Below are positions 31,601-63,863 of a DNA stretch of 64,000 nt, in pieces; within the stretch, counting starts at the first letter, position 1; each line of letters opens with the position of its first letter. Source of the stretch: Massalongia carnosa (Eukaryota); assembly GCA_965645245.1 (NCBI GenBank), contig OZ287067.1:124001-188000 (forward strand), read 5' to 3'. Position numbers and translations under genes: made by a program. The notes under the pieces are model-generated. The model was not told the origin of the DNA. It was given only the letters and a program-made list of their open reading frames with translations, and did not search any database.

Positions 31601-31870
31601 TGGGGCGTCGAGCACACGTCGACGCTCGACACTGTCAACAATTTAGGAGCTCTGTACTTCAATCAAGGCAAAATGAAAGAAGCCGAAGAAATGTATCTGC
31701 GGGCACTGACTGGCAAGGAAAAGGCCTATGGACCTAAGCATAAATCGTCCTTTGACACAAGATATAATTTAGGAATTTTGTACAAGAAAAGATCTATGTT
31801 TGAGGATGCGACACATCACTTCAAGCTTGTCGTACAAGGCTATACAAGTACACTAGGATCCGATCACTAG
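28650..31870 (+). CDS. NLR-like STAND protein: SesB-like alpha/beta-hydrolase, NB-ARC, TPR (multi-exon)
   Basis: Manual splicing gives DVIAVQGLG, WLRDLLP, FIGHSLGGLIIKQA, FLGTPHQGS, DHSGLNKF; Walker A LHGLGGIGKT; Walker B WLLIFDNLD; GLPLAI; MHP; 42-aa TPRs. About six short introns; start codon uncertain. Confidence 0.9.
31274..31727 (+). repeat. 126-bp near-identical TPR-coding tandem repeat (~3.6 units)
   Basis: Units start at 31274, 31400, 31526 and 31652. Confidence 0.97.
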
Positions 31871-36784: not shown

Positions 36785-37834
36785 TACCCGAGGCCCGGCC
36801 ATCGAAGCAAACGAATGAATGCGACCTATCAATAAAGAGGGTAATTGTCAATGAAAGGAAGGCAAATATATGAGGTGCTACCCTCCTCTGAGAAGGTTCA
36901 ATCTTTTGACGCTTCGAAAATTTGCATGTAAATAGCAATGGAGCTTTCTCGCCTTCAGATATAAATATCCTCACAATACACTCTTACAAGCAACCTTCCC
37001 GTCAAATATCTACGCAATGGCTATTGTAAACAGCACCTGAGCCTCTCGCTCACCTAGCCGCCACCGTACCCGTCGGAGTGCCTCCAGAGCATTCAGTCCA
37101 GCAAAATCCAAGCAGGGAGCCTCACGAGGCACTCGCAATTATACCACCCAACAGAAGACACTGCAGGACACAAAGGACCTCATGGAGATAATTCCCAACA
37201 GCCAGGCAAATGACCAACTGCAGGAAGAGATTGCAGACCTCGAAAGGAAGTTTCTTCTAGCTAAGAAGGTCTCTCTGAAAAAGAGCATCGCCGACCTCAC
37301 CTCCACGAACAACACATCAAGTCAGTCGTCCATGCCGAGCCAGACAAGCAGCCCCGATTCAGATGTTCACCGCTCAGAGCACGCCCTCGGCCTTCGGCCA
37401 ATTCTTCGAGCAACAAGGTGGGAAAGAATATTTCCTTCCATTCATGCAAGAATTTCGCTCCATCGACATACAACACATCCGGGACATAAAAAGAAACAAG
37501 TTCAAGCCCGGAAACATCGTGAAACTCAGCACCAGCATAAGAAGGACCGGGGAGATTGCCAAGAACGTCAAACTCGACTTATCGGGTCTCAAAATCGAGA
37601 CTCGGGAAGAGGACTGCACCGTCGCCGACGCCAAGAGCATTGTGTCGCTGCTTCGTTCTTTTCTCGTATACAAGCAAACTCTTCTTTTCCTCGCCCCCTC
37701 GGGCGTTCAATTTCAACTGAATCTTGCCCTCGACAAGTACACTGAGGACCTCTTTGTTGAAGTGTACCAGTGGAGGACCGTGCATAGATTACTCTATATA
37801 ATCCAGTCACCTGACCTTCGATAAGGAGGAATTC

Positions 37835-40800
37835 TGTCAAACCTGAATGTGGTCGATTCTCATCGCCGATCCTCGACCCCCTGTCGCGGCAGATGCCGCT
37901 AAGCTACGCCATTTCTTCCACACCTTTACCCCTCAATTTGCCGGGGTTAATATCGTTGCTGCCATGACCCCTTTTCCCTTCTATATAGGTAGCTAGATGT
38001 GGGCATTTCCCACATACAGAATACAGCCTTTTTCATCCTTCCTGAATTCATGTGAAAGGTTGACAGTTATGAGCCCGGGTTAGCTGAATTTTTCGCTGCC
38101 TCCGTCTTAACTTTAGTTATTGGTAAGCTGATTTATCGCTGCCTTCATCGACCCCGAAATATCCTAGGCAGGCTGAGTATCGCCGCCGGAATTATCGTAT
38201 CTCTCATGGAGCATCGCAGAGTTGATTTATTCCTCGTGCTTCTGTTTTCCTTTGCCTTTTTGGTCGTTTCCCTGTTTTTCCCATCTGTCTCCATCTTTGG
38301 TCGGTTATCCCAAATGGAAGACTACTCGTCGGGATCGTCTCGGAAACTCATCGTCTCGGCTCTGACGCCTAGGACCTACAATTCCTGGTTGTCGGAAATC
38401 AAGGGTATCGCAGTACGATCTCAGGTATGGGAGTACGTCGATCCGGAAGGATCAGAATCGGAACCTACCATTCCCAAATTTCCCAAATTCAGTGATTACG
38501 TCAAAGTCGTCCCGGTTAATACGCCTGGCACTGACTCTACCAATATCCCTACGCCTGCTATTGTCGCTTCTCAAGGTTCTTCTCAAGGGACAGTTCTCGG
38601 CGATTTAAATGGCCCGCCGGTCCTGATTCCCGAACCATGTTCTCGGTATGCCGATCTCTCGGAATCACAGAAGGAGTCGTACAATGCAGATGAACGGTCA
38701 CATCGAGGGCTTCAGGCAGATGCCAGGGCCGCAGCCATGGGAATTGAGAAGGTTCATACGGTCATCCTAGAGTCGGCTAAAGATTATGTCGCCAGGAATG
38801 TCAGATCATCCTCGGTTCGAGAAATTCTTCAGTCCCTGGCCCATAAATTCAAAAAGAGTCCGGACGAAGTTCAAAGGCAGATCGATCGCCAATACGACGA
38901 GTTGAGAAATTCTCACCCGGTGAAAGGGAAGATCGAATCTTGGATCTGCCAATGGGAAACGCTGAGGGAAGAAATCGTTGCTTTGAAAGTTGAACCCATC
39001 TATAGTGAGTATATCTACACTCAGCACTTTCTGAAAGCCGCTCGGATATGGGCACCATTCTTTTGCGACACCTGGATCAAGATACGAAATGTATCAGGTC
39101 GTCCCCTTAAATTCTTCGAGGCCGCCAATGAGTATCGGACCGAGATAGAAGAAAATGCAATCAGCACTGGTCGTCGTCAGCAGCTCTCGGCGAATTCCGC
39201 TTCTCTGCAAGGACAGTCTTCTTCCGATCAGGGAAATTCCACTTCTGACGATAGCAAGTACGGCAATAGCGAATGCCTTTGCGGCGAAACTCACTCCTGG
39301 AAAAGATGCCCTTATTTGACAGTCGAGTCTAGAATCTCGGGATGGAAATTCAATAAGGAGATACGCGACCACATCCGACAAAAAATCGGGTCCAATTCCA
39401 AGCTTTATTGGTATGTCAAACGCGCCGCTACATCCGACATTCTCAACGGCATCTCCGAGCCTGATGAACCTTTGAAACCTCGATATCGAGGAAGAGGTGG
39501 AGGTCGAGGGGGTCGCGGAGATGGAGGTCGTGGCCGAGGCAATGGCAATGCTCCCGCCGAGCTCCCTGTTGTCGAGAATGCTCCAGTCTCTTTTGGAAAT
39601 ACTATCTCGGATCGCGACAATCTGCTTCATCTCAGCGTCTCCTACGACTCGGGATGCTCCAATCATCTGACCTGGGACAAATCCCGGTTTATTGACGAAA
39701 TCATCCCGGCATACGAATGGGTCTCGACTCCCGACGGAGATCTCCTTATTGAAGGTTTTGGGACAATGTTGGTGAATGGGACACTAAAAGGGAAGAATCA
39801 GCCTCTGCATTTTCGACACACAGCATACGTTCCCGACTCATCGGTGACTTTGATTTCGGTCAGCAAGCTGAAAAAGGATGGATTTCTGTGGAACATGCAT
39901 ACGGACACGGTCGAGAAGAAGGGTATTTCAATCTTCGAATTGGAAGAGCATTTCGGTCTCTACACTGCCGAGTATCGTCCCGTTGGCCACGCTGGTGCTT
40001 TCGCAAATTTCGTCGGTTCCCGAGTCTCGGCAGATGCAATCCCAAAAGGCACGCCATGGAAATTTCATCTCCGCCTAGGACATTGCCAACCGGAAGTCAT
40101 TAACCAGTTGTCGAATCAGAAGATGATTGAGATTTCAAGAGGTAACAGTGGTCAAGATGCTCCAAAGACAGTGAAATGTGAGACGTGCGCATTGTCAAAA
40201 ATGCATACACTAGTATCAAGGGTCTCGGCTACTAAAGCCACTAAACCATTCCAGCGTCTTCATTTTGACCTCATTATTTTGAAAAGGACTGCTTTCGATG
40301 GGACCACCTGCGTCGCTCATTTTCAGGATGATTTCACCTCGTTTCATTGGGTCTTCCCCCTGCAAGATCATAAGCAGGAGACACTACTTCGGATTGTCAA
40401 GCATGTCATAAATCGGTGCGATCGACTCGGAGCCGAATTCGGTCTTTTCGTTCAGACCTTTCGAATGGATCAGGAAACGTCGGTTGGAGACGTCATTCAA
40501 GACTTCGTCAAGGAACAGGGAATCGCGTTTGAATGGTCCGCAAAGCATACTAAGGAGCAGAATGGGTCGGCTGAGAGGGCAGGAAGCCTTTTGACTCAGA
40601 AGGCTAGATGCATTCGCATCGGCGCCGATTTGCCAGAAGATCTGTATCCCGAGTGCTATCTCGCTGCTGGACACTTGCTAAATAGGACGCCGACAAAAGG
40701 ACTAGATTGGAAATCGCCTCACATCTCCCTGCACCGAGCCCTGAAGAAGCCATACAATTCCGAAATTGGTCATCTCAAGGTCTTTGGGTGCAAGGCATAT

Positions 40801-43663: not shown

Positions 43664-44639
43664 AATTCACTGGATGCATCTGGAAGATTCCAGTAGCATC
43701 AAGAGGAGGCCTTCAGGTGGCAATAGGGGTAGAAATCTCGTAGCTAGATAGATTTCTTCTATATCTTCAATTCAGACTATTCATTGCCTCTGAACTCCGA
43801 CACTCTTGATACTATGGCAACTATACTCATGGGATTCGGTAAGAAATTATCACTTCGACTTCCACAAGGCAAGGATCCTAAATGGTGCCGACGACCCATT
43901 GGCATGGAAAAATCCAGACTAGGAATTAATACATCAGATTCTCGTCCCTCGGCCCGCACACCCATCGTCAGCCGACTCGCCCCTCTTTCAACGCACACGA
44001 GGATCATTTACAAGGGAGTATGTTATCGATGCTCTACAAGGGTACCTCCGAGATCTGGGATACACAGGCAACTATACGGGCCATTCCTTCCGAAGAGGGG
44101 CGGCAACGTCAGCGAGAATGGCCGGACTCTCGGAGGACGACATTCAGCTTTTAGGACAATGGAAATCCAACTCCTACCAATTATACATTGACACAAATCA
44201 AGCACACATTCTACGGGCATCCTCCAGGCATCAAACATCCCACACTCAACCTCACAGACGTTAGGCGAACGAGTTCACCGGTATTGGGGTTTGGGAGTCA
44301 GGTCAGGGGCGCCGGCGAGGTCTCGAGTCCACAAGAGGTCAGGCGAGTGTAAGGAGACTCATAGAGCGAATCAATTTGGTGCTGATACTAATTAATCTGA
44401 ATCTAAGGAAGGAAGTAAAAGGATCTGTGGGAGCTGTGGCTTTTAACCTTCCAGTAGCGAGTTCCCAATTAGGCTTAGCCTCTCCGCTCAACATAACTAC
44501 GTCCACCATTCAATCATCAACCCTCGCTCGGTCTAGGAGAGGTTTTTGTCGACGTCATTCCATGACAGCGAGGGGCCTTGAGGTGAGGGCGAGGAGGTCT
44601 CGGAAAAGCCGGACCTCCGAGGCTACCCCTGGCCAACCG

Positions 44640-46459: not shown

Positions 46460-49400
46460 TGACTGATCCAATGGTCGTCGGGTTGATGTTGAGCACCTGG
46501 CCCCATATCCTCTGCATCTGCCGCTCTACCTCTGAAATTGACTGCCGCTTCGTGCCTCGTCCTGCCGTCTGCATTTCAGCCAGTTGTTGGACAGAGAATG
46601 ACCCGCCGATCTCACACAGTCGTCTCCGGTTTTTCTTTCCTGTGGCTGTCATAGGCAGCTCCCGCATGGAAAAGAACACTGTCGGTATCATATAGCTCGG
46701 TAGATGCTCGGCCAACCTGCCCTCAAGACTAGCATCAATGAGGAGTAAACTGGCAAAGACACTCCCTCGCCGGTCTGTCTCTGTGACATCATCATTCATC
46801 TGGACAAACGCTGCTAACATTGGGCTTGAATTGTCCCCTTCCGGCACAATCACCTCGATCACAACATGCTCTGCCTCCAGCATGCACTCCTGGACGTGGT
46901 GCGCAACCTCTTCAAGCTCGACTCGCTGTCCACGGATCTTGACTTGCGTGTCTTTCCGCTTGATACACGTTAGACTTCCATCTTCGTTGTACCGGACCAG
47001 GTCACCTGTCTTGTAGAGTCGTCCATGCCTTCCTGGCCGATCTAGCGCGTCTTGTAACAACCATACTGGGTCCTCAATGAATACCGCTGCCGTCTTTTCT
47101 GGATTGTTCACGTAGCTAGGGCCGACAAGCGGCCCTTCAAGTAGTAGCTCGCCGATGGATCCAAGTGGGAGCAGATGATCGTGGTTTTTTGAATCGACAA
47201 CCCAAGTCACGAGCCCGGCACCTTTTCCTATGGGAGTGGTCTCTTCTGGACTAGATGCACTGCAATTGATCGTACTGAGTGTGGTGCATTCGCTTGGTCT
47301 ATATGCTTGGAGGACCCGCACCTTACCCCCACCAAGGTTTTACATCGTTAATATGAACTTTCTCACCAGCCAAAATAATCATCTGTAACTGAGTTGTCTA
47401 CTCGGGAACTAGAAGCTGAGCAACAGACGGGGTAAGATCGATGACATTAGCATGGAGAGATGCTATGCTCTCCGTCAGCTTATTCCTCCGGTCTTGATCG
47501 CTTGGGACACATAAACAACCACCCACAAGAAGGGTTGTAAAAGCGTTGCTAATAGTTGCATCAAAGCCTTAGGATGCAAAATCAAAGACTCTTGAGTCTG
47601 TCGTCAATCCTCGGAGTCTTAGCTGATGGTGGAGAGCTGAAGCCACATGCCTGTGGGTTATCACTACCCCTTTTGGTGTCCCTGTACTGCCTGATGTGAA
47701 AACCACATACATGACAGACCATGGGCTGGGGCCAGAAAGGTGCTCAATCGGTCCATCACCCAGGTCTGCAAAAAATTCCGAACTGACAGTGATAACCTGT
47801 TGCGCTAGCCGCGAGCTCAGAGCATAGTTGGAGAGAGAAAATAGGACCAGGCTTGCTTTGGTTTGTTTGACGATGTCCTGAAGACGTTGCTCAAGATGTG
47901 AGGGGTCAAGCAAGACAAAGCCGCCGCCCGCCTTAAGCACGCCAAGTATCGTGACTGTCGTCCACATTGACTTCTCAAAACAGAGTGGCACCAGAACGTC
48001 CGGCCTGACACCGAGCTCGACAAGCCGGCCCGCTAGTCCCATAGCAAGCTGGTTTAGTTCGCTGTATGTTAGCTCACCATCCCACGCGCGCACACGGCTG
48101 GTGCGCTAGGCTGAGCCTGTGCCTGCTCCTCAATCATCTTGTGGACGCATCGCTCGACTGACACTGGAACAATGCTATTCCATTCCCATATCTCTTTGAG
48201 GTCTTTCTGTGTGACCATCTTGATCTCCTTTAACGTCCGGTTAGAATTCGCATTGTCAAACTGGCCTATTACAGCTTCAAGCCGCTCTAGTAAATTCTGC
48301 ACCACCCACGGCTCGATCACCCTTGAGTCAAAGCTGGCTGAAGCTGTAATGTTGTCTGCGTCAAGCCGTATCTCAAGCATAAGAGCATATGTGCTGAATC
48401 ACTGTTGTTGGCTGCTATCCTGCCACTTCCCAAGCAGATCCTGGGTAGAGTCATTATCCTGCAGCTAAATGACAAGCAGCGTTTAGAACATGCACGATTA
48501 CTTACTATCAGGGCCCATCTTGGCAATTTGATGCAAGCCAGTCTGCTCAAAAGGGATCATATCTATTGCTTGTCGTTGTTCTGCCTCCAAATATTCTGAA
48601 ACTCTTTGGTTGCTGGCTACCTTTATGCGCACTGGAGCCGTGGCGATTGTTGGGCCTGCCATCTCATCAATGCCAACAACAGGCGCGTTCCTTCCAGACA
48701 CTGTGACGCCAAACAAAACATCATCTGAGTCTGTCATATGGCTAGTGACCAAGGCCCATGCAGCGCGGATAAGCGTTAATGTTGTAATATCCAGAGACTG
48801 TCTTTGGGGCAATAGGAATTGATGCTCTATTACTATGTCTGCCACCGGCTGTTGCACAGATGGCGGGAGGGCTGGGAACGGTGTACAATTGCAGTCTGCC
48901 AGCACTTGTTGCCAGTAATCCACCACCTTTTTATCGTCTTGCTCATCGATATATTTGATAAACGTTTTGAACTGAGGCCTAGACTCAAGCGCCTCACCAC
49001 AATATACCCGATTAACTGCGTTCATAATCAGAGGCAGTGACCAGCCATCATAGATGGCGTGTTGTACCGTCCACACGAACCACTTGTATATACCTGTATC
49101 ATCTTTGACAAGAGCATACCGGGCGAGCGGCTGACCTATCTCCATAGACTCTTTTCTGTCAGCTTGGAGATACTCATTTAGTCCTGTTGCCTCAATCCAA
49201 GGGATGTCTTCGTCCAAGACCACCTGCAAAAGGCCAATATCATTGTGCTGAACAATTCTTGTACGCAAGATTTCCATTGTCCCGGCTACTTCCTTCCATG
49301 CATTGTAGAAAGCCCCGATTGTGCTGTCTGAAGATAATTCTAGGGTACTTTGCATAATGTAGTCTCCTGATCGCTTTGATGACAGAGACAAAAGACCTTC

Positions 49401-50445
49401 TTGAAGTGGAGTGTATGGATATGCGTCCTCAATAGTAGCTGGGTCCAATTGACACTGAATCGAAATATTCTGGATGAGCAAGGTGATATCAAAGCTGTTA
49501 CCCAGAAGAGAAAATGGTATGATATACTCCAGAAGGTCATCCGCTAAACCAAGCCCCTGGTGTGCCACATGCTCCAACCGAGGATGGCGGAAGATGTTTG
49601 TCATTGCTAGTTTGACGCCAATCTTTTGAGCCTCACTCACAAGTTTCATTGCTGCAATTGAGTCACCTCCAAGCCGGAAGAAACTATCGTCAAGCTCAAT
49701 GGTCGTCGGGTTAATGTTGAGCACCTGGCCCCATATCCTCTGCGTCTGCCACTCTTCCTCTGACTTCGGCTGCCTCTTTTTGTCTTGCCCAGCTGTCTGC
49801 ATCTCAGCCAGCTGTTGAACAGAGAATGACCCACCAATCTCACACAGTCGTCTCCGGTTTATCTTTCCTGTGACTGTCATAGGTAGCTCCTTCATGGAAA
49901 AAAATACTGTTGGCACCATATACCTCGGTAGATGCTTTGCCAGCTTGTCCTCTACATCAGCAGTAATGAGAAGAATATTGGCCATGGTAGACTCTGCCTC
50001 GTTGGTTTCTGTCACATTGTAGTTTATCTTGGCGAACGCCGCTAACACTAGGCTTTGATTCTCCCCTAGCGGCATAATGACTTCAACCACAACCTGTCTC
50101 GCTTGCGGTAGGCACTCCTGCACGCGGTACTCAACCTCTCCAAGCTCAACTCGTTGTCCGCGGATCTTAACTTGTGCATCTTTTCGGCCAATGAACGTCA
50201 GGCTCCCAGCTTTGTTGTACCGCACCAGGTCACTTGTCTTATAGAGTCGTCCATATCCTCCTAGCCGACCCGGCGCCTCTTGCAGTAGCCATGCTGGGTC
50301 CTCAAAAAACGCGGCTGCAGTCTTCCCTGGATCGTTTAGGTAGCCCTGGAAGATAAGTGGCCCTTCAAGCAGTAGCTCACCGATGCATCCGAGCGGGAGT
50401 AGATTACCGTAATTATCTGGATCCACAACCCAAGCTACCAGCAGG
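46460..50445 (-). pseudogene. Non-ribosomal peptide synthetase fragment (partial A, T, C, A, partial T)
   Basis: GELLLEGP, LYKTGDL, QVKIRGQRVEL (twice), FFRLGGDSIAAMKL, YTPLQEGL, QHAIYDGWS, FTSGSTGTPKG. Frameshifts and stops; truncated at both ends. Confidence 0.93.
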
Positions 50446-51169
50446 CCCGCGGCGGGATGTCCTTCCCAAGCCGTGCACGGCCAAGCCCTCACCCGCGTTT
50501 TCGAGGGCGCACAGGAGTCTGGGAGGGTCGTAGCAGCCAATACCGCCTAGGAGGTGGGCTTGGGCTTGATGGGTGTAAGGTTTTGGTCCAGGCGCTCCCG
50601 TCTTCTCCCAGCGAGCATTTTATTTGAAAAAGTAAATGAGAAGGCAAGGATCATAGATATATTTAAAGGCAGTAAGCTGACCAGGGAGAGCTTCGAATTC
50701 GATCAAGCGCTCGTAAAACTTCACAGCAACGACCGGGGCCCAAAGACAAGGCCGATGAACGTGCGAATATACTGATGCGGACCGTCAACGGCGCAGCTAC
50801 TTCATGATGCGTCGGACGAACCGCTGGCGCTGTGCGTGATTCAGGAGGACGAAGGGGCCGGTGTCAACATGACGGAATCGACGAAAGCGCTCGCCACGAA
50901 AGAAGGGCTCGGAGGAAATCATCCGAACGTCCGTGACAGCATCATCGCGATCAGATGGGTTTGGAGGATTTTCACGATGGGAGTTCATGCTCACTGTTGA
51001 CTAGCAGGAATGCAAAGGCGTCAGAATGGACAAGGTTTCTTACGTCTGAGCATGCCATTTTTGCTAACTTGCTTCGGGCGCTCTGGGCTAGCTCCCGGCG
51101 CAGTTTTAGCACCGAGCTAGAGGCCCTGAGAGCTACTCGCAATCGCTTACAGTAGTACTGTACAAGGTA

Positions 51170-53494: not shown

Positions 53495-53770
53495 CTACCC
53501 TATTGCACCAGCGGCAAGTAACATTTGCATCTCCTTATCATGACCTTTCGCTGATGCCGTCCACAATGTGTAGTCACAGCCTTCACTTTGTGCGTTGAGA
53601 TTAGCCTCTTTGTCGAGCGATATCTGCATCACTCGATCATGATCATTAAATGACGCCGTCTGCAGTTGCATCGTCAATGGCTCCACCTCGAGCGTTCTCA
53701 TCGGCTCTTTTCTTCAGCAGCAGCTGCAATGCTTGATCATGATCTTCTTTTGATGTCGCTTGCACTTCAT
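53495..53770 (-). pseudogene. Ankyrin-repeat gene remnant
   Basis: About three degenerate repeats, e.g. TLWTASAKGHDKEMQMLLAAGA. Confidence 0.7.
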
Positions 53771-54417
53771 CTCTGTGAATCGCAAGTCAATTATCACTTA
53801 GATCAGTGAAGGTTTTTCTGTCAACCTCAGTCCTTGCTTAAAGGCTTTGAAATGTCCAAACAAATCTCAATAATGTCAACGTACTGACCTGACATAATGA
53901 AAATGATAGGAATAGATGTCAGGACTTGATGTATTGTAATTGCTCGTCTCATCTTCAGCTATGTCGTCGATTGTGATGCTCAATCGCTTTACAATTTTAG
54001 CGTACTTTATCAAAGGCTAGGCTCGACAGGCGTAAGCACTGATTGTACGTCTTTGAAAATCTCCATCATTGCATCTACGTAGCTCAATGAAGTAAGATGC
54101 TTATTCATTCAATAATGATTTGAGATCTTGTCAGACTTTTGTTCTGAAGTGCTTACGGAAGCAAGGGCAGGATTCAGAGATCGGACATAAGTTGGATAAG
54201 CATTCTCTGCTAAGAGGCCCCTCTAGCTGCGGCATATTTGAAGCCTGGAACTCTTGTCATGCGAGCTCTTCACGTCTCACAAGGAGTCAACTTTCACCCG
54301 AAGCTGATGACTGCGCAAAAAAACTTTGTTTTGAAAGACGTCAAAAAGTCAATTGATTATTTCATGTCCCTGAATAGTTTCCTAGAATGACTCCGCAATG
54401 ATTGCCTATCCCTCGGT

Positions 54418-55681
54418 CTACACAGAGTCTTTTGGGTTAATGCCATGATAAGTATTCTTTATTTTCTGTCAGCTTGTACATCGCTATCGAATGGATAGGT
54501 GATCCTTACAGTGATACTACTCCCAGATATTTTAACACCTTCTGTGGCCGTACTATTTGCATGACCCATAATCACACCTGGATTGTTATCGATTTTGTCC
54601 CTAAAGTTAACATCGCCCATACGAACCGAATGGTTCTGTTGATTTACAGCTAACTTCAAGCGCGCGAAAGAGATGTCAGACCTGGCGATCCTCTCCAGAC
54701 CCCTTGGATCGACTATTAAGATCCGATATCCATTGAACCAACTTTTGTGAGATTCTCTTGTATCCCTCTCGGTCTTCATCCTCAAACTTGCACATATCAA
54801 CATGGTTCGCCTGGATCGACTGTGGATCGATACCAGGCAGGCAAGCCGATTCCTTGGCCACGATAAATCCCATCTTCGTCCCTCCCTCATACATAGCATA
54901 CTGTTCAAAGAAACAAGCTACTTCCACAAACTCTCTTGATTCTGAACGATCCCATGCTTTCAGGAATTTCTGAAAGGCCTCGTTAACGCTGATGAGCTTT
55001 GCCGAACGCTCTTCAAGATCCTTTATATCCTGCTTATGCGTGGTGCTTATCCAGCCCAGTATCTGTAGAGCCCTGCTTCCCCATTTTGCTTTTGACGATC
55101 CCTCAAAGGACGTTCCAAGGAAGACGACTCCAATCGTTCTCTCTACGAGGGTAGTGCTAGCAATGTCGGTACCATTGTGCCTTGACAACGCATTGGCGCA
55201 CACGAGACCCCCTAGGCTGTGCGAGACGAAAATAATCGGCCGTTCAGCCTGGACATAGACATCCTATTAGCATATTTCTGGTGGAAAGGGTAGGGGTGCG
55301 CCGATTCCTACAGTTTTGGTTTTCTCGTGGAGACTGATTAGGCTCTGAAACATTGCAGTCGCGTGATCATCAATAGTCAAATGCTCCGGGATGAATTTCG
55401 GTCCAACAAACGGATAGAAGTGAGCAAAGTCCGCATTGTAACCAAAAGAAGGATGCGAGCTGTTGGGCAGGCTTGAGTTAAGAGATCTTGCGGCCACAAC
55501 AGCGATCTATCTCGACCCTCCCATGTCCAAGTTTTCACTCTGTCGCCGCCGAGCCCGTGGACGAAGACAATACTGTTGGGTCAATACAAAGCAACCCGGA
55601 CGAGAAATGACATCTGGTGCGTACTCTATATTCGCGTCTGGAGAATCAAAGAGGGTCGCCTAATCCGTACGGTTCGGCCAT
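54418..55681 (-). pseudogene. Stand-alone SesB-like alpha/beta-hydrolase with C-terminal putative amyloid motif (two homopolymer frameshifts, possibly artefactual)
   Basis: DIVFVHGLGG, LWPQDLL, FGYNA, IIFVSHSLGGLV, FLGTSFEGS, CFFE, NHVDMCKF. Introns 55573-55624, ~55250-55311, 54636-54681, 54457-54509. Tail NHSVRMGDVNFRDKIDNNPGVIMGHANSTATEGVKISGSSITNTYHG. Confidence 0.85.
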
Positions 55682-56025
55682 GCTGGCGTTGTCATCGCAA
55701 TACTACAGAGGGGTCGTGCTTCAAATTTAGCACTATGACTTATGCGAGATAATTGTGATACCGCCTGCATGGAGAGACCAGGCGCTTCAGCACGTGCATA
55801 GCCTTGGCTCTATCAGCCATCTATCCCGCATGATGGCGGGGGCCCCTCCATCGGCGAGTCCGTGCCTATATTTATACTTAGAGATGAACAGTGCTTTTAG
55901 AAAGTCTTGGGCGTCGAGTTTCCGGCCGAGCCTAGGTGCGGTCCTGAGCACGGTAAAGGTAATGGTTTTCAAGTCTTATTCAATATAGCTCCGAGCTCTA
56001 ATGTCTACAATCTTCCGACGCAGCA
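55682..56025. promoter_or_regulatory. Putative bidirectional promoter between hydrolase and NLR
   Basis: 344 bp between divergent ATGs; AT-rich TATATTTATA at ~55868-55877 reads TATA-like on both strands. Inferred from geometry only. Confidence 0.5.
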
Positions 56026-58754
56026 ATGGCCGGTAACACGCCAGTAGTCTCTACAGGCACGAAGGACTTCGGCACGATTTCTGGCAACCAAGGCGCTGTG
56101 ATCGGTGACGTCTCAGGCTATGCGAAAGTGATTGGTTTGCGTCCTGTTCATATCGATATTGATCTTATGCTAAATCCTGATTAGGCTCTCAGACAAACAA
56201 TATTGTTCAATATCCAGGCAAGTCGCCATTCACAATAATATAGCGTCCTGTGAGCCAAGGCTGATAGCATTCTGCGTTTGTAGAAAGACCCGATACCCCA
56301 CCAAGCCCATCATCTGCTGTTCGTTTCCCCCGCGACCCTGATTTCGTCGATCGCGGAACGCTACTTGATCAGATCCACGAAAAGTGCTCCGCGCCAGCAT
56401 CAAGGGTAGCGCTTGTCGGCCTAGGCGGCGTTGGGTAAGCCAAAGGGCCTCAGGCTAGTTCTAATAGCTTACTTTCGCAAAGAAAGTCGCAGCTTGCCAT
56501 CGAGTACTGCTATCGAATCAGAGAGCAGTTGCCGACGACGTGGGTGTTCTGGATACACGCTAGTAATGCAGCCCGTATCGAGCAAGGTTATCGGGATGTT
56601 GCAGAGCAAGTCAAGATTCCTGGCAGGGAGGACCCAAAGGCGGACATATTCCGGCTAGTTGACAAGTGGTTACGCGACGAAAAGAACGGAAAGTGGGCTC
56701 TGGTCCTCGACAATGCCGACGAAGCTACTGTGCTTTTCGAAACTCATGCTACAGGCCAGAAGGCGCAGGATTGCGGCATTAGAAGCGGGCTCACGCAATC
56801 ACTGTTAGCATATCTACCTCAGAGTCGAAACGGCTCGATTCTCATCACCTCCCGGACTAAAAGCGTGGCATTGCGGCTAGCAGAAGAAAGAGACATAATA
56901 CCGGTTGAGCCGATGGACGATACACATGCGCTAGCGCTCCTTGAAAAGAAGCTGGGAGAACAGATGGACAGAGATGATACTGCTGAGCTAGCAGCAGCAC
57001 TCGAATTCATGCCGCTTGCCATCGTTCAAGCGGCCGCATACATTCGACAAAGAGTACCAAGATATTCTGTTCGACAATACATAAAAGAGTTCTATAAAAA
57101 TGATAAAAGAAAGACTAGTCTGTTGAATCACGAAGCGGGACATCTTCGCAGGGACCTGGATGCTAAAAATTCAATCATTATAACCTGGCAAATATCGTTT
57201 GATCATATTCATCAGATCAAGCCTTCGGCAGCTAATCTGCTGTCGCTTATGAGCTTTTTCGATCGACAGGGAATTCCTGAGGCTTTACTCAAGACACAAA
57301 ACGAGGCAGGAAATGAAAATACGGGAGAAAATGCTGGAAATGACGAAGATGATGACCACGAAGACGATAGCAATAAGGATACCGTATCCGATTCCAGCGT
57401 CGACGAGTTTGAAGACGACATACTTGTCTTGAGAAACTTCTCGTTCATCACCATCAGCATAGATGAAACCACCTTTGAGATGCACGGGCTAGTGCAGCTA
57501 GCGATCAGAAAGTGGCTAGAAGCATCCAATCAGCTCGAAAGATGGAAGCAGCAATACATCAAGAATCTCTGTACAGTATTTCCGACGGGAAATTACGAGA
57601 ATTGGACAAAGTGTCAAGCGCTTTTTCCTCACGCAAAGTCGGCAGTAGCGCAGGAGCCAGCTGTCGAAAGCTCATTACAAGACTGGGCCTTGATACTATA
57701 TCACGCTGCATGGTATGCGTGGGCGAAAGGGAGTTACGCTGAAGCAGCGACAATGGCCCTAAAAGCAAAAAGAACCAGGCAAAAAGTGCTTGGTCCAGAG
57801 GATGAAGAGACATTGAATAGTATGGCTATGCTAGCCTTGGCATACAAGGGACAAGGACGATGGACGAAGGCCGAAGAGCTGCAGGTGCAAGTGATGAAGA
57901 CGAGTGCGAGGGTGCTAGGGGCGGAGCATTCTTCCACGCTGATCAGCATGGCCAATCTTGCGTCGACGTACAGGGATCAAGGACGATGGACGGAGGCCGA
58001 AGAGCTGGAGGTGCAAGTGATGGAGACGAGTGCGAGGGTGCTAGGGGCAGAGCATCCAGACACGCTGACTAGCATCGCCAATCTTGCGTCGACGTACAGG
58101 AATCAAGGACGATGGACGGAGGCCGAAGAGCTGGACGTGCAAGTGATGGAGACGAGAAAGAGGGTGCTAGGGGCGGAGCATCCTTCCACGCTGACTAGCA
58201 TGGCCAATCTTGCGTCGACGTACAGGAATCAAGGACGATGGACGGAGGCCGAAGAGCTGGAGGTGCAAGTGATGGAGACGAGTGCGAGGGTGCTAGGGGC
58301 AGAGCATCCAGACACGCTGACTAGCATCGCCAATCTTGCGTCGACGTACAGGAATCAAGGACGATGGACGGAGGCCGAAGAGCTGGACGTGCAAGTGATG
58401 GAGACGAGAAAGAGGGTGCTAGGGGCGGAGCATCCAGACACGCTGACTAGCATGGCCAATCTTGCGTCGACGTACAGGAATCAAGGACGATGGACGGAGG
58501 CCGAAGAGCTGGAGGTGCAAGTGATGGAGACGAGTGCGAGGGTGCTAGGGGCAGAGCATCCTTCCACGCTGACTAGCATGAGCAACCTTGCATTTACGTG
58601 GAAGTCTCAAGGCCGCAATGATGAGGCTCTCTCACTGCTAAAGGAATGTTTTCAGCTCCAAAAACACAAGCTGGGTCCTCAACATTCTCATACAGAGTCT
58701 TCGCTTAAGTATCTCAATGAGTGGCAGATGGAGAGTTTATCATTGGAGTCTTAA
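56026..58754 (+). CDS. NLR-like STAND protein: short putative amyloid N-terminus, NB-ARC, TPR
   Basis: Exons 56026-56134, 56185-56217, 56284-56434 and 56483-58754 give an open frame: ERPDTPPSP linker, FVDR, Walker A VGLGGVGKS, Walker B LVLDNAD, MPLAIVQAAAYI, MHGLVQ, TPR array. Confidence 0.92.
57852..58607 (+). repeat. 126-bp near-identical TPR-coding tandem repeat (6 units)
   Basis: Units start at 57852, 57978, 58104, 58230, 58356 and 58482. Confidence 0.97.
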
Positions 58755-58989
58755 AGCGATTCATATAATTCAGAACTAAATCCTATTACCCTTGAAACCT
58801 ATCCTGATCTTCTTAGCGGTTGATGAACAAGGCAGTGTAAGAATACTACTTTTTATTTTCTCCAAAGCTGAAAGTTTAAAACGTGAATGACAGAATGATC
58901 GAGCTCGCTGACGCACGCGACTACCCCTAGGTTTTACACTCGCCCGCGTTAGCAGAGAGGCCTAAGCGGTGCGCTCTAACTGTTCCAAA

Positions 58990-59205
58990 TAGTAGGAAGT
59001 CGTCAAACCCTCTCCCTTGAGCATTCACCTCCGCGCCCTTGTCCAGCAACATCTCCACAACCTTCTTGTGGCCTAGTTCTGCTGCCCAAATTAACGCTGT
59101 CCGCCAGTGCTGATCTTGTGCCTCCAGATCTACCAATTTAGCATCCTCGATCATTCTCAGGATGACTTCGTATTCATTGAACGCTGCAAGCCTGTTGTCA
59201 TTCAT
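58990..59205 (-). pseudogene. Ankyrin-repeat gene remnant
   Basis: QDQHWRTALIWAAELGHKKVVEMLLDKGAEVNAQG. Confidence 0.8.
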
Positions 59206-59379
59206 GACCGGCTGATCTTCATATCGTGATAAAGCCCGCCACAGTAAGGGAAATCATAGTCGAGGTTAATTATCTTCTCCTCAGCTTAGTTCACAGTCCC
59301 TTGACATATCTGCATCTTTCAACCCGAAAGTAGCATAAGTAGCATTTCGGAAATGGGCCGTCTGATGTTTAGAACCTGA

Positions 59380-62300
59380 TGTTATCAAAAGGCAGTATAG
59401 TAATATATAGTCAATAGAGGATAGAACGCTTGCTTTTGTTCTATATAGTGGGAATAGCTAGATTTATAGACAATGTACGGTATCCTAGTATTAGACTAGC
59501 GATACGTCTAGCCATTAGTTAGCGTGCGCCATACTCGTGCGGTAGAAGGTGAGTGCGGCTGAAATGAAGTAGCCTGATTTGTACATTCTAACACTCCCAC
59601 TCAGGCACTGAAATAGCTCTCCCACATGATAAAGAGAAATTCAATAACTCCCACATACTCCAGTATAATATCATGCTTCCTAGTGGATCACCTGCAGGTG
59701 AGTCAGTGTACTCCGCAGGCTAATGCTGCTGGTGATGTACGAAAACACCCCCGCAGGCTCAGCTGTGGGTGATACTTTTTTTCGGGGGTTAAGGTCGGAT
59801 TTTTACGACAAAGGGCTTCTGGTTTTACTTTAAGCCTAAAGCCCTTCGAAAGACAACAAATTTATCGTTTGGTAGGGCCTTGATTAGGCCGACAGCTACC
59901 TGCTCTTCGGTAGGAACATAGCGAAATTCCACTGATTTGTCTTCGATCTTCTCTCTTTGGTAGTGCCATTGGATGTCGATATGCTTGCTCCGCGCGTGTG
60001 CCTGGGGATTTCTGGCCAAAGCCATTGCTCCTTGATTGTCGCAGTGAATGATGATAGCGTTTAGGGCGAAAGATATAGGCAAGTAGGCAAGGGCTACAGA
60101 GGTGCTCTGGGTTTGGATATAGTTATTCCCAAGGACTTGAGGTGTTGAGAGTTGGTCGAGAAGACTAGACAACCAGGCGGCTTCCTTGGTGGCTTGGTCT
60201 GACCCATGTACTCGACTTCGCATGAAGATAGGGCTACGGTCGGTTGTCGTTTGGAAGACAAGCTAATAGCGCCACTACCAACATTAACACGAAGCCAGAG
60301 GTAGTAGACCTTCGGGTATGATGATCTGCGGCCCAATCCGCGTCAGTGTAACAGTTCAAGGGTTGTAGGCAACCTTTGTATGTTAACTGCAACGGAAGAG
60401 TGCCCTTGATGTATCGAAAGATGCGTTTGACTGCCTTCCAGTGCGTGTCGGTCGGGTTCGAGGCATGGCGGCTGACCACCGGTACGATGTAGGCTAAGTC
60501 AGGCCTGGTGCCTAGCATAGCATACATGAGAGAGCCCACCGCTGATTGGTAGCGGAGGCGAGAGTCATCTGTGGCCTGATGGCCCTCTGGTGCAGCCTCC
60601 AGTCGCCCATCCATCGGGGTAGCCACGGGTTAAGTGTCCCACATGCCATGGTCGCGCATTACTTTTTCCAGATAGTCCTACTGACCAAGGCGAAGAATCC
60701 TGTTGGCCCGATCCCGAGTTATCGTCATGCCCAGGTAGTAATTGATAGGGCCTAAATTAAACATCGAGAACTCGTCGCTCAGCAGTTTCTTGACACATTG
60801 TATCTTTGAAGAAGAAGGGCCAGTGATGATTAAATCATCGACATAAATGGCTACGATAACCCCTTCTTTAACAAAAACGCTAAGGTCGGCATTGACTCGA
60901 ACGAAGTCATGCATGAGACTTGAAAAAAATAGTGATCGTGTCATACGAGATTCTAGACGACTGTTTCAGGCCATAAAGAGCTTTCTTCAACTTGCAAACT
61001 CTCGTTGACCCGTCATCAAGACCGGTTGGTTGCTCCACGTAGATTTCCTCGTCCACCCTTCCGTACAAGAAGGCTGATTTTACGTCCATTTGGTGAATTT
61101 CCTAGTCATTAGCTGCAGCGATAGCGAAGATGGCTTTATAGCTCATTGGCTTCACTACTGAAGCAAAAGTCTCATTGTAGTTAATGCTTTCACGTTGCTC
61201 AAAGCCTCTGACCACCCATCGAGCCTTGTAACGAAGAATCTCGCCAGCCGGGCCTCGTTTGGTTTTATAAACCCATTTGCCTCGCAGGGCTTTGCGGTCC
61301 GAGGGCAGGGAGGTGAGGATCCAGGTATTATTTTCGTTGATAGAGTCGATTTCTTCCTGCATTGCCCTTCGCCAATCCTTATCCTACCGACTGTCTACGG
61401 CCTGTTTATAGGATTTAGGCTCGTATGGCTCCGGGTCATTGGCTCTAGCAAGAAGGGCCAAAAAAGCTAGTGGGTCAGGCGAGGGGGCACGAAGTTTTGG
61501 GTGCTTAGAGAGGATATCTGCCTGGGACCGAGGCTCAGTGGGCCGTTGGTTTGCCAATGCCTCTTGTCTAGCGTTTGGTGGGAGAGGTCCAGTGGGAATT
61601 GATTCTATGGATTCATGAGCGTCGACTAAGTCCGTATGAGGGGCGTCCGTATGATGGGTAATTTTTTTGCTTTCTCGTTGGCGGTCCTGACTGTCCAACA
61701 TGTAAGGCTCTTTTAGTTTGAGAGAATGATAAGGAAGGAGGAGTTGGGGGATTATTATCTATCCACTGAACATTGGAATAACGCATGACCGCGCCCCGTG
61801 GATTTATCATTCGATAGATGTGATCGCCTTCGTATCCTACTACAGTACATTTGGTGGTTCGTTCCTGAAATTTCTTCCATCCGGTGGAGGGCTTGCGATT
61901 TTGCGCATAGCCAGTCTATCCTATTATCTATCCTTAGATGTTCTAGTTCTGGTAGGCTGCCGGTGTGAGACTTATAGGGGGTGATGGAGCGTCCCGCAGT
62001 CGGTCGTCGATTTCGTAGGTAGTTGGCGGTGAGAACCATTTCAGCCCAATATTTGATGTCGAGTTTAGTGCCTTCTCGCATGGTGCTGGCTAACTTGTGA
62101 AGCGTTTGACCTAGGCGCTCGGCTGTCCCGTTCATGAGTGGATTTCCCGGTACGGTAGGCTCCCACTGAATGCCATGCTCGTTTATGAAATTCTCGAAGT
62201 CTTTGGAGTCATACTCACCCCCGCAGTCCGATCGCAAGCGCTTAACTCGTTTGTCCACATATTCGTTTTGCTTCTTGTAGTTTTTAAAGCCTTGAAGGAC

Positions 62301-63660
62301 TCCGCTTTTGACGCGCAGTAAAGTGACGTGAGACCGTTTATCGAAATCGCAAAGAAAAGTCACCATATATTTGGCGCCATTCAAGGATTCTGGGAAAGGT
62401 CCTAGACATCGCTGTGAGTTAAGTCCAGCGGGTGCTTGCCTAGTTGGATGGGGGCCCGGTGTGGTTCTACTTGGGACTGAGCGATGGCGCACGGAGGACA
62501 GGCGTCTTGGGGCGGGGGCTTGATGAGGTCCATTCCTTTTGACATGCCAGCGAGCTTGAGAATGTTTTGATTTCCAAGATGGCCTAAACGAGCGTGCTAC
62601 ATTTTTATCGCCTCGCTATTAATTGCAGCGAGAGCGAGAGCGGCTTCAGAGACGTTCCACATGTTCAGGATATACAGATTGTTGTCCTGGCGGCGAGCAG
62701 TGATACCATAGTTCCCGATTTCAATTCCCTCTGGTACGATCTTCAGGGGACATCCATCTCGTTGTAATTGTCCTTGGGAAATGAGATTTAGGCCTCCGTC
62801 CGGAACGTATAACACATCGAAAAGAGGGAACTCCCGAAGACCCTTGTTACCGGCACACAGCAACATGATGTTACCTATTCCTTTGGGAATTAATACTCCT
62901 CCAATGCCTTGAATTGGTGGGCAATCGGATGTCTTGAATGAGGTGAAGATGGAGCGATCGTGGGTAATATGTTGGCTAGTTCCAGAGTCACAGATCCAGA
63001 GCTTAGATATTTTGGTTATATCCGCGGTGGCCATGTAGGCGCAGAAGGCTCCTTTGGTTGAGTCATTGTTTCCGGTTGGCTTTTGACTTTGACCTTGACT
63101 TTTGGAACTCCTGCGACGCTTATTGGACTTACGCCGTGAGTCTTGGTTAACGAGGTGTGGATATTTTTCATGACACTCGCTCTCTACGTGATAGTCCTTT
63201 CCGCAGTGGTTGCAATACTTGATGGTCTTGGTGATGATTCGAGAATGGGCTGTTCCAGGTTGAGCTCCGCGTTTGAAACTGCTGCCATTGCGATTACGGC
63301 CTTATCGTTGGACTTGCTTGGGTTGGTCACCGTGTTTTGGAAATGCTGCATAGCCTGACTTAATGTGTGCTTGAGTTCACCCATTTCATTGAAAGGATCA
63401 TGATCCTGAGCGTATCGTTCAAAATAGCTGTTGTATTCGAGGCATAAATTGGTATGAAAGCGATAGATAAGCCAGTTTTCGTCCAGGCTTAGCTTGCTTG
63501 AGAAGGTGCGAAGCTTATTGACCGTGGCGCGAAATTGGGTAATAGGGCTGCTGCAATCCGATAGGATAAGGTTGTCTAATTTTCTGAAGGTGTCATTGAG
63601 GAATCCCGAACCGCGAGGCTTATGGTTTGATTCAAGTGAAGCCATCATTGGGAGCGTTTG
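59380..63660 (-). mobile_element. Ty1/Copia LTR retrotransposon 4, 5'-truncated and degenerate
   Basis: 3' LTR 59380-59593 (TGTTA...TAACA) with PPT GAGTGGGAG; WICDSGTSQH, RSDCGGEY, RYKARWVVRG, DVKSAFL, YVDD, TDADWA, RSKHIDI. No 5' LTR or PBS. Confidence 0.92.
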
Positions 63661-63661
63661 G

Positions 63662-63863
63662 TCCCATGTCCAGGTTGGTTTTCACTCCGTCACCGCCGAG
63701 CCCGTGGACGAAGACAATACTGTATGGTCAGTACCAAACAACCCGGACGAGACATGACATCTGGTGCGTACTATATTCGCGTCTGGAGAATCAAAGAGGG
63801 GGTCGCCTAATCCGTACAGTTCGGCCGTGCTGGCGTTGTCATCGCAACACAGAGGAGTCGTAC
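63662..63863 (-). pseudogene. Diverged duplicate of the 5' end of the SesB-like hydrolase gene
   Basis: Aligns to ~55520-55720 (exon 1, intron 1, IVFVHGLGGD...WTW). ATG changed to ACG; fused to Copia 4 gag. Confidence 0.9.

Follow-up and report, generated by a model that had tools for sequence, protein, structure and literature searches.

To our knowledge, amyloid-templated signalling from NLR receptors to their effectors has been established for few motif families (HRAM, PP, sigma and PUASM), and how enzymatic, lipase-type effectors are activated is, as far as we know, not understood. The closest described systems are built on the PP motif, which the sections of PMC5485727 and PMC9815663 available to us present as a pseudo-palindrome of about 20 residues, NxGxQxGxN, with a conserved central Q. 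According to the accessible parts of PMC7885112 and PMC5485727, one NLR of Chaetomium globosum controls both HELLP and SBP, and the TPR copy number of pnt1 differs between isolates. For other motifs, non-adjacent partners have been suspected in the part of PMC9815663 at hand. Here, we describe a locus in which a receptor with a short N-terminal motif stands next to a lipase-like gene with a C-terminal tail resembling that motif.

Structure of the receptor gene

In the 64,000-nucleotide stretch of DNA (the window), an NB-ARC/TPR receptor gene on the + strand, predicted from four exons to encode 854 aa, lies head-to-head with a hydrolase gene on the - strand. The hydrolase starts at 55681, and the intergenic gap is therefore 344 bp, in agreement with the divergent arrangement proposed in the initial annotation. 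The features of the two genes are as follows.

56026..56134, + strand: receptor exon 1, Met plus 36 residues, the bulk of the N-terminal motif VSTGTKDFGTISGNQGAVIGDVSGYAKVI; aligned with P0040, P0092, P0141, P0065 and P0155
56185..56217, + strand: receptor exon 2, end of the motif (GSQTNNIVQYP), then a GC-AG intron (56218-56283)
56284..56434, + strand: receptor exon 3, ERPDTPPSPS linker, FPRDPDFVDRGTLLDQI and the start of the Walker A motif (GLGGVG)
56483..58754, + strand: receptor exon 4, remaining NB-ARC, DUF7779 and TPR domain; stop codon at 58752-58754
57852..58591, + strand: TPR array, 126-bp (42-aa) units, 5.9 copies, 92% matches
55682..56025, no strand: shared intergenic region, 344 bp separating the two divergent start codons
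55625..55681, - strand: hydrolase exon 1, beginning MAEPYGLGDPL; 2-base gap in a G run near 55652-55655
55312..55572, - strand: hydrolase exon 2, IVFVHGLGGDR...ARIL / FGYNADF...HEKTKT; 1-base gap near 55448
54682..55248, - strand: hydrolase exon 3, catalytic core with the SHSLGG nucleophile and the ANHVDMCKF histidine
54510..54635, - strand: hydrolase exon 4, C-terminal tail motif NHSVRMGDVNFRDKIDNNPGVIMGHANSTATEGVKISGSSIT; tail HMM 61.3 bits
54418..54456, - strand: hydrolase exon 5, NTYHGINPKDSV and stop; acceptor alternatively at 54466/54465

The receptor has a Walker A motif (GLGGVGKS, interrupted by intron 3), an NB-ARC domain and C-terminal TPR repeats, which is the make-up of the fungal NB-ARC/TPR NLRs, and 2646 of the 8000 sequences scored were its relatives at E<=1e-3. 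In Pfam, the large exon matched DUF7779 (33.4 bits), TPR_10 (1.1e-101, 8 stretches) and, weakly, NB-ARC (17.5 bits), the last score being measured on exon 4 alone, which is without the P-loop; full-length relatives carry NB-ARC above threshold (P0040 33.4 bits, P0092 41.5 bits). Exactly 47 residues lie upstream of the ERPDTPP linker and no Pfam domain was detected in them, so that the earlier claim of about 47 residues and no effector domain held. Exon 1 scored 77.4 bits with the c3 HMM, a model that includes the window's own sequence. The predicted structure requires a GC-AG splice at intron 2, and the same exon junction in the Lobaria model P0040 gives ...SQTNNNFQYPGRPDTPP; the features of exon 3 are kept in nearly all of the short-N-terminus relatives listed.

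The receptor is intact in the window's strain. Among the 41 of 106 sequence differences that were listed, those in exons 1 and 3 (56067, 56070 and 56399) were all synonymous, with coding effects read by hand at five sites, and this counts in favour of constraint on the receptor tip. In addition, TPR copy number varies among related assemblies, with receptor ORFs of 601, 610, 652, 736, 778 and 820 aa (clusters P0036/P0037).

Structure and decay of the hydrolase gene

The neighbouring gene is, from its predicted product, a SesB/SBP-like alpha/beta hydrolase (DUF676/PGAP1-like) with the GxSxG serine and the histidine in place, in a frameshifted copy. SHSLGG and ANH are invariant in its 25 relatives, all 25 match DUF676 at E<=1, one homologue (P0026) bears the name 'SesB protein', and the AlphaFold2 model of the relative P0001 has its matches among monoglyceride lipases and esterases (E about 1e-6). 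An upstream in-frame ATG (MTTPAWPNRTD) was rejected as the start because homologues begin MAE(Q/P)YGL. The 52-nt intron upstream of exon 2 (55573-55624) is skipped exactly by one contig of run X5. The tail, encoded by 54635-54510 and 54456-54418, is G/N/S/T/V-rich, as had been noted initially for a G/N/S/T-rich C-terminus, and P0002/P0195 end as exon 5 does.

The initial annotation had recognised the SHSLGG and NHVDMCKF motifs, which are indeed present, but the gene itself is not intact. Its frame is broken twice, by the 2-base gap near 55652, which leads to an in-frame TGA in exon 1, and by the 1-base gap near 55448, both being gaps relative to all homologues. Moreover, a private serine (55110) replaces P154 and a private tryptophan (54954) replaces R206, two residues that are invariant in the 25 relatives. 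With both frameshifts and the replacement of two invariant residues, the effector allele in the window's strain is decayed, and the hydrolase/receptor pair is probably not functional there because the hydrolase is broken.

It could be argued that the same pair is intact and working in this strain and that misassembly of homopolymer runs accounts for the frameshifts. Both gaps do lie in short single-base runs (G near 55652 and A near 55448), and intact versions occur among contigs of X1 and X2, runs with the same organism label. However, the same gapped states recur in contigs of other runs. A GG insertion behind 55652 was carried by 69.2 of 69.2 depth in X3, 5810 of 12272 in X2, 12490 of 68642 in X1 and 432 of 1154 in X5, so that roughly half of the depth, or more, is without it in each of X1, X2 and X5. 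The A insertion behind 55448 was carried by 335.6 of 335.6 in X5 and 4117 of 95419 in X1, but had zero depth in X2 and in X3, a run with another organism label and from another study. A 2-base homopolymer error would also be unusual, and the private changes at the two invariant residues, where all four runs have another base, tell against this explanation as well, which we regard as quite unlikely. Both broken and intact hydrolase alleles are found among the contigs of related samples, and the locus is therefore polymorphic for function.

The motif shared by the receptor and the hydrolase tail

The receptor motif spans about 40 residues, with three 'V-x-[IM]-(x)-G' blocks about a core N-x-G-x-[VI]-x-G, and it is also found in the five other NB-ARC/TPR receptors aligned with exon 1. 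On the hydrolase side, stand-alone hydrolases (344-431 aa) of the Dothideomycetes, Eurotiomycetes, Sordariomycetes and Leotiomycetes retain the tail, G316 in its N-x-G core is invariant in all 25 relatives, and the corresponding residues 290-344 of the P0001 model have pLDDT below 55. When the six receptor N-termini were aligned with the 25 hydrolase tails by hhalign, the score was 27.2 (P 3.2e-6, 26 columns), a value reached by none of 300 column shuffles (maximum 15.5); the N-termini of PP-type receptors aligned in the same register but lower, with 17.2 against the tail and 13.4 against the N-terminal class of the window. At the family (profile) level, these alignments indicate that the two motifs are homologous.

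The likeness claimed initially between the receptor N-terminus and the tail is accordingly upheld for the family, but it is weak for the window's own pair of peptides, which gave a local score of 39 (z 2.0, with 22 of 500 shuffles equally high) and 6.0 bits with the tail HMM against a shuffle maximum of 6.5. In a six-frame scan of 1992 window ORFs, each motif HMM placed the motif of the other gene among its top non-self matches, with cross-gene scores of just 6.1 and 7.4 bits, and neither HMM found a strong further copy of the motif among these ORFs. In addition, the N-x-G turn of the window's tail contains a proline where close relatives have R or Q, which counts against the two genes being a pair.

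Such values invite the explanation that the two genes are chance neighbours and that their peptides share a G/N/S/T/V-rich composition, with no signalling relationship. For the window's own two peptides the score scarcely exceeds that of shuffles, transposon remnants abound in the window, where a second NLR is also present (a fused SesB-like NB-ARC/TPR NLR with broken frames at 28759-31870), and fungal genomes contain many NLR and SesB-like genes. Nevertheless, the column shuffles keep composition and never attain the profile score, the alignment keeps the register of the PP core, and the adjacency is seen again in Lobaria, as is an NLR adjoining a tailed hydrolase in Cenococcum; together with the partner-specific covariation at a metagenome locus (see below), this makes coincidence very unlikely in our view.

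Named motif families were compared with both peptides. The PP motif (Pfam PF17046, 'Ses_B') was rejected, as there was no match at E<=10 (27.5 bits for the control P0046), and PF17046 was absent from the 25 of 27 families listed for the 25 hydrolases. The central Q of PP is not conserved, its position being Q/E/H/S in the receptors and V/I in the tails. The sigma motif (PF17106, NACHT_sigma) was rejected, with neither the tail nor the N-terminus matching (48 bits for the control P0027), and so was HET-s/HRAM (PF11558), since neither peptide matched any Pfam family at E<=10. As judged by these Pfam models, the motif fits none of sigma, PP and HET-s. None of the protein accessions from Lindgomyces, Patellaria, Zopfia and Clathrospora appeared in the portion of the PMC9815663 supplements that was compared, and the motif may be the same as the unlabelled NLR34 or a minor effector-side motif of that paper.

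Adjacency and motif partners in relatives

In Lobaria immixta, the receptor (MMC22_008330, MCJ1268442.1) and a tailed hydrolase (MMC22_008331, MCJ1268443.1) carry consecutive locus tags on one 53,149-bp contig. In Cenococcum, the accession of a tailed hydrolase (OCK93015.1) adjoins that of an NLR (OCK93014.1), which is of the ANK type, with its N-terminus not read, and was scored "noasm" in a 2022 census. A gene model of Clathrospora (KAF1941162.1) combines an NLR linker with the C-terminus and tail of the hydrolase, and five contig sizes are common to tail ORFs and receptor ORFs in related assemblies. In contrast, the matching receptors found in Lindgomyces, Dendryphion and Zopfia lie on scaffolds other than that of the tailed hydrolase. 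Adjacency, the conservation of which had been suggested for checking in the initial annotation, was seen in Lobaria, with the tail present, but not for the receptors found in these three genomes. Among Logan contigs, the uninterrupted ORFs P0001, P0185, P0189 and P0195 (344-395 aa) read through all four intron sites and keep the tail in frame, and would therefore most simply represent spliced transcripts, that is, expression in relatives.

Covariation of the motifs had also been suggested for checking. A metagenome scan with the hydrolase alignment kept 80 loci of 360 relatives, among which one (L002) has a PP-like tail and one alone (L003) a window-type tail. In L003, a hydrolase with a divergent tail and a neighbouring ORF are arranged head-to-head, and the N-terminus of this ORF matches the tail of the hydrolase (score 65, z 8.6, 0 of 500 shuffles). 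The same N-terminus matched the other five tails more weakly (z 0.8-3.0), and against the L003 tail the four receptor N-termini gave poor matches (z -0.5 to 2.2). Judged from these scores, partner-specific covariation is seen at L003, but no NLR domain was found in the neighbour of its hydrolase.

A further possibility is that the receptor acts mainly on an unlinked effector, such as a HeLo-like pore former with a closer copy of the motif, and that the hydrolase is a secondary or dispensable client, like SBP beside HELLP in Chaetomium. The control of HELLP and SBP by a single C. globosum NLR and the suspected non-adjacent partners of other motifs, both cited above from the accessible parts of those papers, would suit this arrangement, as would the decay of the effector beside an intact receptor and the hydrolases unlinked to matching receptors in three genomes. 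On the other hand, among the 120 of 126 window ORFs of at least 90 aa that were examined, no HeLo, HELL, HeLo-like or SesA domain was found, in agreement with the earlier statement that no HeLo, HELL or SesA gene was seen in the window, and the 1992 window ORFs held no further strong motif copy. Searches with the tail returned hydrolases only: phmmer against 1.84 billion representatives gave 17 matches, all of them tail exons or hydrolases and none a receptor. On the receptor side, a word-indexed search with the Lobaria N-terminus (residues 1-48) gave itself alone from 30 candidates, and the receptor N-terminus had no usable match in the ESM Atlas. We consider an unlinked main effector unlikely.

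Discussion

The locus is probably a two-gene NLR/effector amyloid-signalling module of the PNT1/SBP type, with a decayed effector allele and an intact receptor, and its motif is apparently uncatalogued and PP-related. The amyloid-signalling pair envisaged in the initial annotation is thus retained in its architecture, its profile-level homology and its adjacency in Lobaria, and is modified in that the hydrolase is broken and the motif falls outside sigma, PP and HET-s. In an intact module, binding of a ligand to the variable TPR array would lead to oligomerisation of the NB-ARC domain, and the clustered N-terminal motifs would then fold into a cross-beta (amyloid-like) nucleus. This nucleus could template the disordered C-terminal hydrolase tails and thereby, in the course of a cell-death or defence response, concentrate or activate the lipase-like enzyme; we infer the templating, the activation and the outcome.

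More tentatively, and with somewhat less than even confidence, we propose that the shared peptide represents an uncatalogued family of fungal amyloid-signalling motifs that couples SesB-like lipases to NLRs in several ascomycete classes and possibly to non-NLR partners (L003). It would be PP/RHIM-related, about 40 residues long, with three V-x-[IM]-G blocks and a hydrophobic residue in place of the hallmark glutamine, and intact and inactivated effector alleles would occur beside an intact, repeat-variable receptor. This would matter in several respects. First, a motif with the PP/RHIM register and without the central glutamine would test what a RHIM-like core needs for templating and specificity. 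Second, it would provide a second well-conserved model for enzymatic (lipase-type) effectors. Third, the occurrence of effector alleles of both kinds, intact and broken, next to an intact receptor offers a natural genetic contrast, which, if our reading is right, would amount to a naturally occurring on/off polymorphism in the amyloid immune switch of a Lobaria-related fungus. Amyloid-type immunity would also be extended to a probably lichen-forming fungus, as suggested by the nearest named relative (Lobaria immixta) and by the lichen-metagenome runs in which the locus occurs, and the 2022 census would have scored as motif-less an NLR (Cenococcum) that adjoins such a lipase.

Compared with the known systems, the locus is most similar to hellp-sbp-pnt1 of C. 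globosum (PP motif) and pnt1-hellp of Podospora anserina, which, as far as the accessible descriptions go, share with it a short-N-motif NB-ARC/TPR receptor and, as the lipase with the same motif, SBP. TPR copy number is variable in pnt1, and here between assemblies, the NOD/TPR region is 58-66% identical to that of many PP-type receptors, and the motif core is in register with the PP core N-x-G-x-Q-x-G. Unlike hellp-sbp-pnt1, no HELLP gene was seen at the window and the effector is broken, and in contrast to PP, the motif has about 40 residues instead of about 20 and aligns V/I with the central Q, which its family does not conserve. The het-eN/sesA/sesB cluster of Nectria haematococca (sigma), as described in the part of PMC5485727 at hand, resembles it in a SesB-type predicted lipase whose C-terminal motif of about 40 residues is common to the NLR, and the sigma-tailed hydrolases P0027, P0028 and P0032 are distant homologues of the window hydrolase (36-39% identity). 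However, NACHT_sigma matches their tails (48 bits in P0027) and not the tail or N-terminus of the window, where the receptor is NB-ARC/TPR and no sesA gene was found. The fused SesB-like NB-ARC/TPR NLRs have the same effector class and receptor chassis, but in them the hydrolase forms the receptor's own N-terminal domain, whereas the pair in the window consists of separate genes linked by a short motif alone. Finally, in the available parts of PMC9815663 and PMC12261475, the PUASM (FxGxGxQxxGxGxF, effector PNP_UDP) and 'GDQN' (NxxxGxQYxxxGxGDQN, effector SesA) pairs differ from the window pair in both pattern and effector, and provide precedents for new motif families being recognised by the adjacency of NLR and effector genes.

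Gene models and the broken frame of the hydrolase

The two genes were modelled as follows.

56026-56134, 56185-56217, 56284-56434, 56483-58754, + strand: receptor (NB-ARC/TPR NLR), best gene model, four exons
55681-55625, 55572-55312, 55248-54682, 54635-54510, 54456-54418, - strand: SesB/SBP-like hydrolase, candidate effector, gene model

The receptor has introns of 50, 66 and 48 nt, of which the second requires a GC-AG splice (GCAAGT...TAG), and its 854-aa product carries exactly 47 residues before the ERPDTPPSPS linker, in agreement with the approximately 47 aa of the initial annotation. Support for exon 2 and the GC-AG intron comes from the predicted protein of Lobaria immixta (P0040), which is continuous over these junctions (…SQTNNNFQYPGRPDTPP). 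When the large exon was searched with Pfam, TPR_10 matched in eight stretches (1.1e-101) and DUF7779 with 33.4 bits, and NB-ARC gave merely 17.5 bits because the P-loop sits in another exon; intron 3 interrupts the Walker A motif GLGGVGKS, and full-length relatives score above the NB-ARC threshold (P0040, 33.4 bits; P0092 from Lindgomyces, 41.5 bits). The TPR region consists of arrayed 126-bp units (5.9 copies, 92% matches).

The hydrolase starts at 55681 on the - strand, 344 bp from the receptor ATG, so both start codons bear out the head-to-head order and the gap described initially. Its introns (52, 63, 46 and 53 nt) are all GT-AG, and the SHSLGG nucleophile and ANHVDMCKF histidine were found. 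Homologues all read MAE(Q)YGLGDPLFDSP… and …ARILSFGYNADF…; compared with them, the window hydrolase is two bases short in a G run near 55652, with an in-frame TGA as the result, and one base short near 55448. Both sites were surveyed in contigs of four public sequencing runs (X1, X2, X3 and X5) over 54300-56600.

Depth with the frame-restoring insertion / total depth in four public runs
55652, GG inserted, frame restored: X1 12490/68642; X2 5810/12272; X3 69.2/69.2; X5 432/1154
55448, A inserted, frame restored: X1 4117/95419; X2 0/8123; X3 0/62.2; X5 335.6/335.6

Gapped as well as intact states of both sites are present in other data sets, and therefore the gaps are real, polymorphic alleles; simple assembly errors are an unlikely source of them. 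Two substitutions, P154 to serine (55110) and R206 to tryptophan (54954), occur in the window hydrolase alone at positions invariant in 25 relatives, and all four runs have the other base at both sites when read by hand. The effector allele is decayed in the window strain. In one X5 contig, 55572 is followed directly by 55625, so that exactly the predicted 52-nt intron is missing; since X5 is only guessed to be DNA, this contig represents a spliced transcript or an allele without the intron.

Hydrolase family and its conserved tail

The hydrolase exon query gave 34 relatives at E<=1e-3 among 575 candidates. The closest is P0001 (89% identity), Pleosporales proteins and one from Aspergillus nanangensis have 71-78% identity, and remoter relatives come from Xylariales, Sordariales, Fusarium, Leotiomycetes and Nannizzia, the last under the source name 'SesB protein'. 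DUF676 matched in 25/25 aligned members (E<=1). The AlphaFold2 model of P0001 (mean pLDDT 73.9) has a generic alpha/beta hydrolase fold nearest to monoglyceride lipases and esterases (E about 1e-6), and pLDDT is <55 at residues 290-344, the C-terminal tail. This tail is conserved family-wide in the alignment of 25 relatives, with the consensus S-V-x-M-G-D-V-x-[FY]-x-x-x-I-x-N-N-x-G-V-V-x-G-H-x-x-x-T-A-x-D-G-x-R-x-T-G-S, and its N-x-G core glycine is invariant in 25/25. Uninterrupted ORFs of 344-395 aa on Logan contigs (P0001; P0185, 15 contigs; P0189; P0195, 20 contigs) run through each of the four intron sites and keep the tail in frame, and the simplest reading of these sequences is that they represent spliced mRNA of orthologues. 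Among the runs listed for the window locus itself, none is RNA.

Resemblance of the receptor tip and the hydrolase tail

The likeness of the receptor N-terminus (tip) to the tail, proposed from the window alone, stood at the level of families and was weak for the window pair itself. When six receptor tips were aligned with 25 tails by hhalign, the score was 27.2 (P 3.2e-6, 26 columns, 42% identity), with VSTGTKDFGT-ISGNQGAVIGDVSGYA of the tips opposite VRMGDVNFKDKIDNNQGVVMGHAYGTA of the tails; none of 300 column shuffles reached 27.2 (mean 8.5, sd 1.8, maximum 15.5), and the reversed profile scored 11.2. The 27 PP-type tips share the register over N-x-G-x-Q-x-G with the tails and the window tip class, at lower scores (17.2 and 13.4, respectively). 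Single sequences give a weak signal: on the window receptor, the tail HMM scored 6.0 bits (shuffle maximum 6.5), its best two of 122 receptors being P0141 (10.5) and P0092 (9.1), and in Smith-Waterman comparison the window tip gave z 2.0 with its own tail (22/500 shuffles as high) and z 4.1 with the intact Lobaria tail (0/500). Among 1992 six-frame window ORFs scanned with the motif HMMs, the other gene's motif ranked third or fourth (6.1 and 7.4 bits), and the sole match ranked in between was a 24-codon ORF just past the hydrolase stop.

That ORF (54365-54436, - strand, different frame; …DRGIGNHCGVILG) is the top non-self match of both HMMs (9.7 and 7.9 bits; E 0.077 and 0.31). A remnant of a second motif repeat is one possible explanation, and coincidence is another.

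Distribution of the tip and the pair

The receptor NOD (nucleotide-binding region) query gave 2646 relatives among 8000 scored. In the 120 matches listed, PP-type tips (…ISFGDANSGFQAGIINGPV…) are found on most of the receptors whose N-terminus is short, and five receptors have the window type.

Receptors with the window-type tip among the 120 matches listed
P0040: Lobaria immixta, 74% identity over the searched region
P0092: Lindgomyces
P0141: Dendryphion
P0065, P0155: Patellaria

A quick maximum-likelihood tree built from 56 NOD regions makes the window receptor and P0040 sisters (SH-aLRT 99) and puts the window tip type in four or more distinct positions among NB-ARC/TPR receptors of the PP type. 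This scatter indicates that receptor chassis have exchanged the signalling tip.

The idea that the two genes are kept together was upheld in Lobaria immixta, where the receptor MMC22_008330 (MCJ1268442.1) and the tailed hydrolase MMC22_008331 (MCJ1268443.1) carry successive locus tags and share a contig of 53,149 bp, and failed for the receptors found in three other fungi. Matching receptor and hydrolase are not on the same scaffold in Lindgomyces (KAF2468400 and KAF2476197) or Dendryphion (KAH7119994 and KAH7122359), and the receptors found in Zopfia (KAF2181395, KAF2181614) are not beside the hydrolase KAF2181455. The tail type was found in only one of 80 metagenome loci. These results count against the paired-module reading. 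Further arrangements were seen in other genomes. First, the accession of the tailed hydrolase of Cenococcum geophilum 1.58 (OCK93015.1) directly follows that of OCK93014.1, a protein that supplementary file 2 of PMC9815663 gives as an NLR of 1130 aa with NOD 93-294, an unannotated N-terminus, ANK repeats and the entry 'noasm'. Second, in KAF1941162.1 (P0169) of Clathrospora elynae, a degenerate hydrolase C-terminus and tail run into an NLR linker (…ARPDTPPSPS…FRRDSDFVD…), which suggests a same-strand or fused arrangement of both genes. Third, in related assemblies, tail ORFs (P0156, 7 members) and receptor ORFs (P0036/P0037) are on contigs of identical sizes (2110715, 2104751, 2077076, 2023447 and 1685442); the lengths of four receptor ORFs (652, 736, 778 and 820 aa) are separated by whole multiples of 42 aa, a step that the listed ORFs of 601 and 610 aa do not follow.

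Covariation of the two motifs, anticipated if they act as partners, was found in the metagenome locus L003.

5838-6770, - strand: L003 hydrolase with divergent tail
8480-9337, + strand: L003 partner, 311-codon ORF without Pfam domain, head-to-head with the hydrolase

The N-terminus of the ORF scored 65 against the L003 tail (z 8.6, 0/500 shuffles) and cross-pairs scored low, which indicates partner-specific covariation. The motif-bearing partner in L003 may not be an NLR. A DUF6603 gene (1-2325) lies near this pair.

Surroundings of the pair

A second NLR at 28759-31870 (+ strand) carries at its N-terminus a SesB-like hydrolase domain (probability 89% and P 2.3e-6 in hhalign with the hydrolase alignment) fused to NB-ARC (24.3 bits) and TPR repeats (TPR_10, 1.4e-43), and thus the same effector class occurs in fused and split form within 25 kb. 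The gene is spread over several frames, either by introns or because it is broken. Transposon remnants are dense at 1-28000, 33000-44000 and 59800-63700, including copia- and gypsy-type reverse transcriptase and integrase, LINE-type endonuclease-RT, and Tc1/mariner and MULE transposases, and positions 38056-43263 contain one long, open polyprotein frame of copia-like type. A non-ribosomal peptide synthetase fragment (47572-50546, - strand; AMP-binding, PP-binding and condensation domains) is about 4 kb from the pair. Ankyrin-repeat ORF fragments on either side (58930-59253 and 53495-53786, both - strand) may be what is left of a further ANK-type NLR or HET-like gene.

Comparison with known systems

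According to PMC7885112 and PMC5485727, the putative lipase SBP and a HeLo-like killer are both under the control of a PP-motif NB-ARC/TPR receptor in the hellp-sbp-pnt1 cluster, and the pnt1 repeat number differs among isolates. PP is described there as a pseudo-palindrome of roughly 20 residues centred on a conserved Q (PMC5485727), and Pfam PF17046 is PP misnamed SesB, as noted in PMC12261475. Neither PF17046 nor PF17106 (sigma) matched tip or tail at E<=10 in Pfam searches or appeared among the families listed for 25 hydrolases; PP and sigma membership was ruled out, as positive controls did match (P0046, 27.5 bits; P0027, 48 bits). Published fungal families comprise HRAM, sigma, PP, PUASM 1-2 and a 'GDQN' pair (PMC9815663; PMC12261475), and the window pattern was not found among these as printed in the portions available. 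The PP-related motif is apparently uncatalogued, and it could equal the unlabelled NLR34 of PMC9815663.

In conclusion, the window locus is probably a PNT1/SBP-type two-gene module with this PP-related motif, and the pairing of the two genes is conserved in Lobaria at the least. In contrast to PP, its centre has V/I in place of the conserved Q, and the neighbouring Q is not conserved. By analogy with the known systems, the module would work through amyloid templating and activation of the hydrolase.
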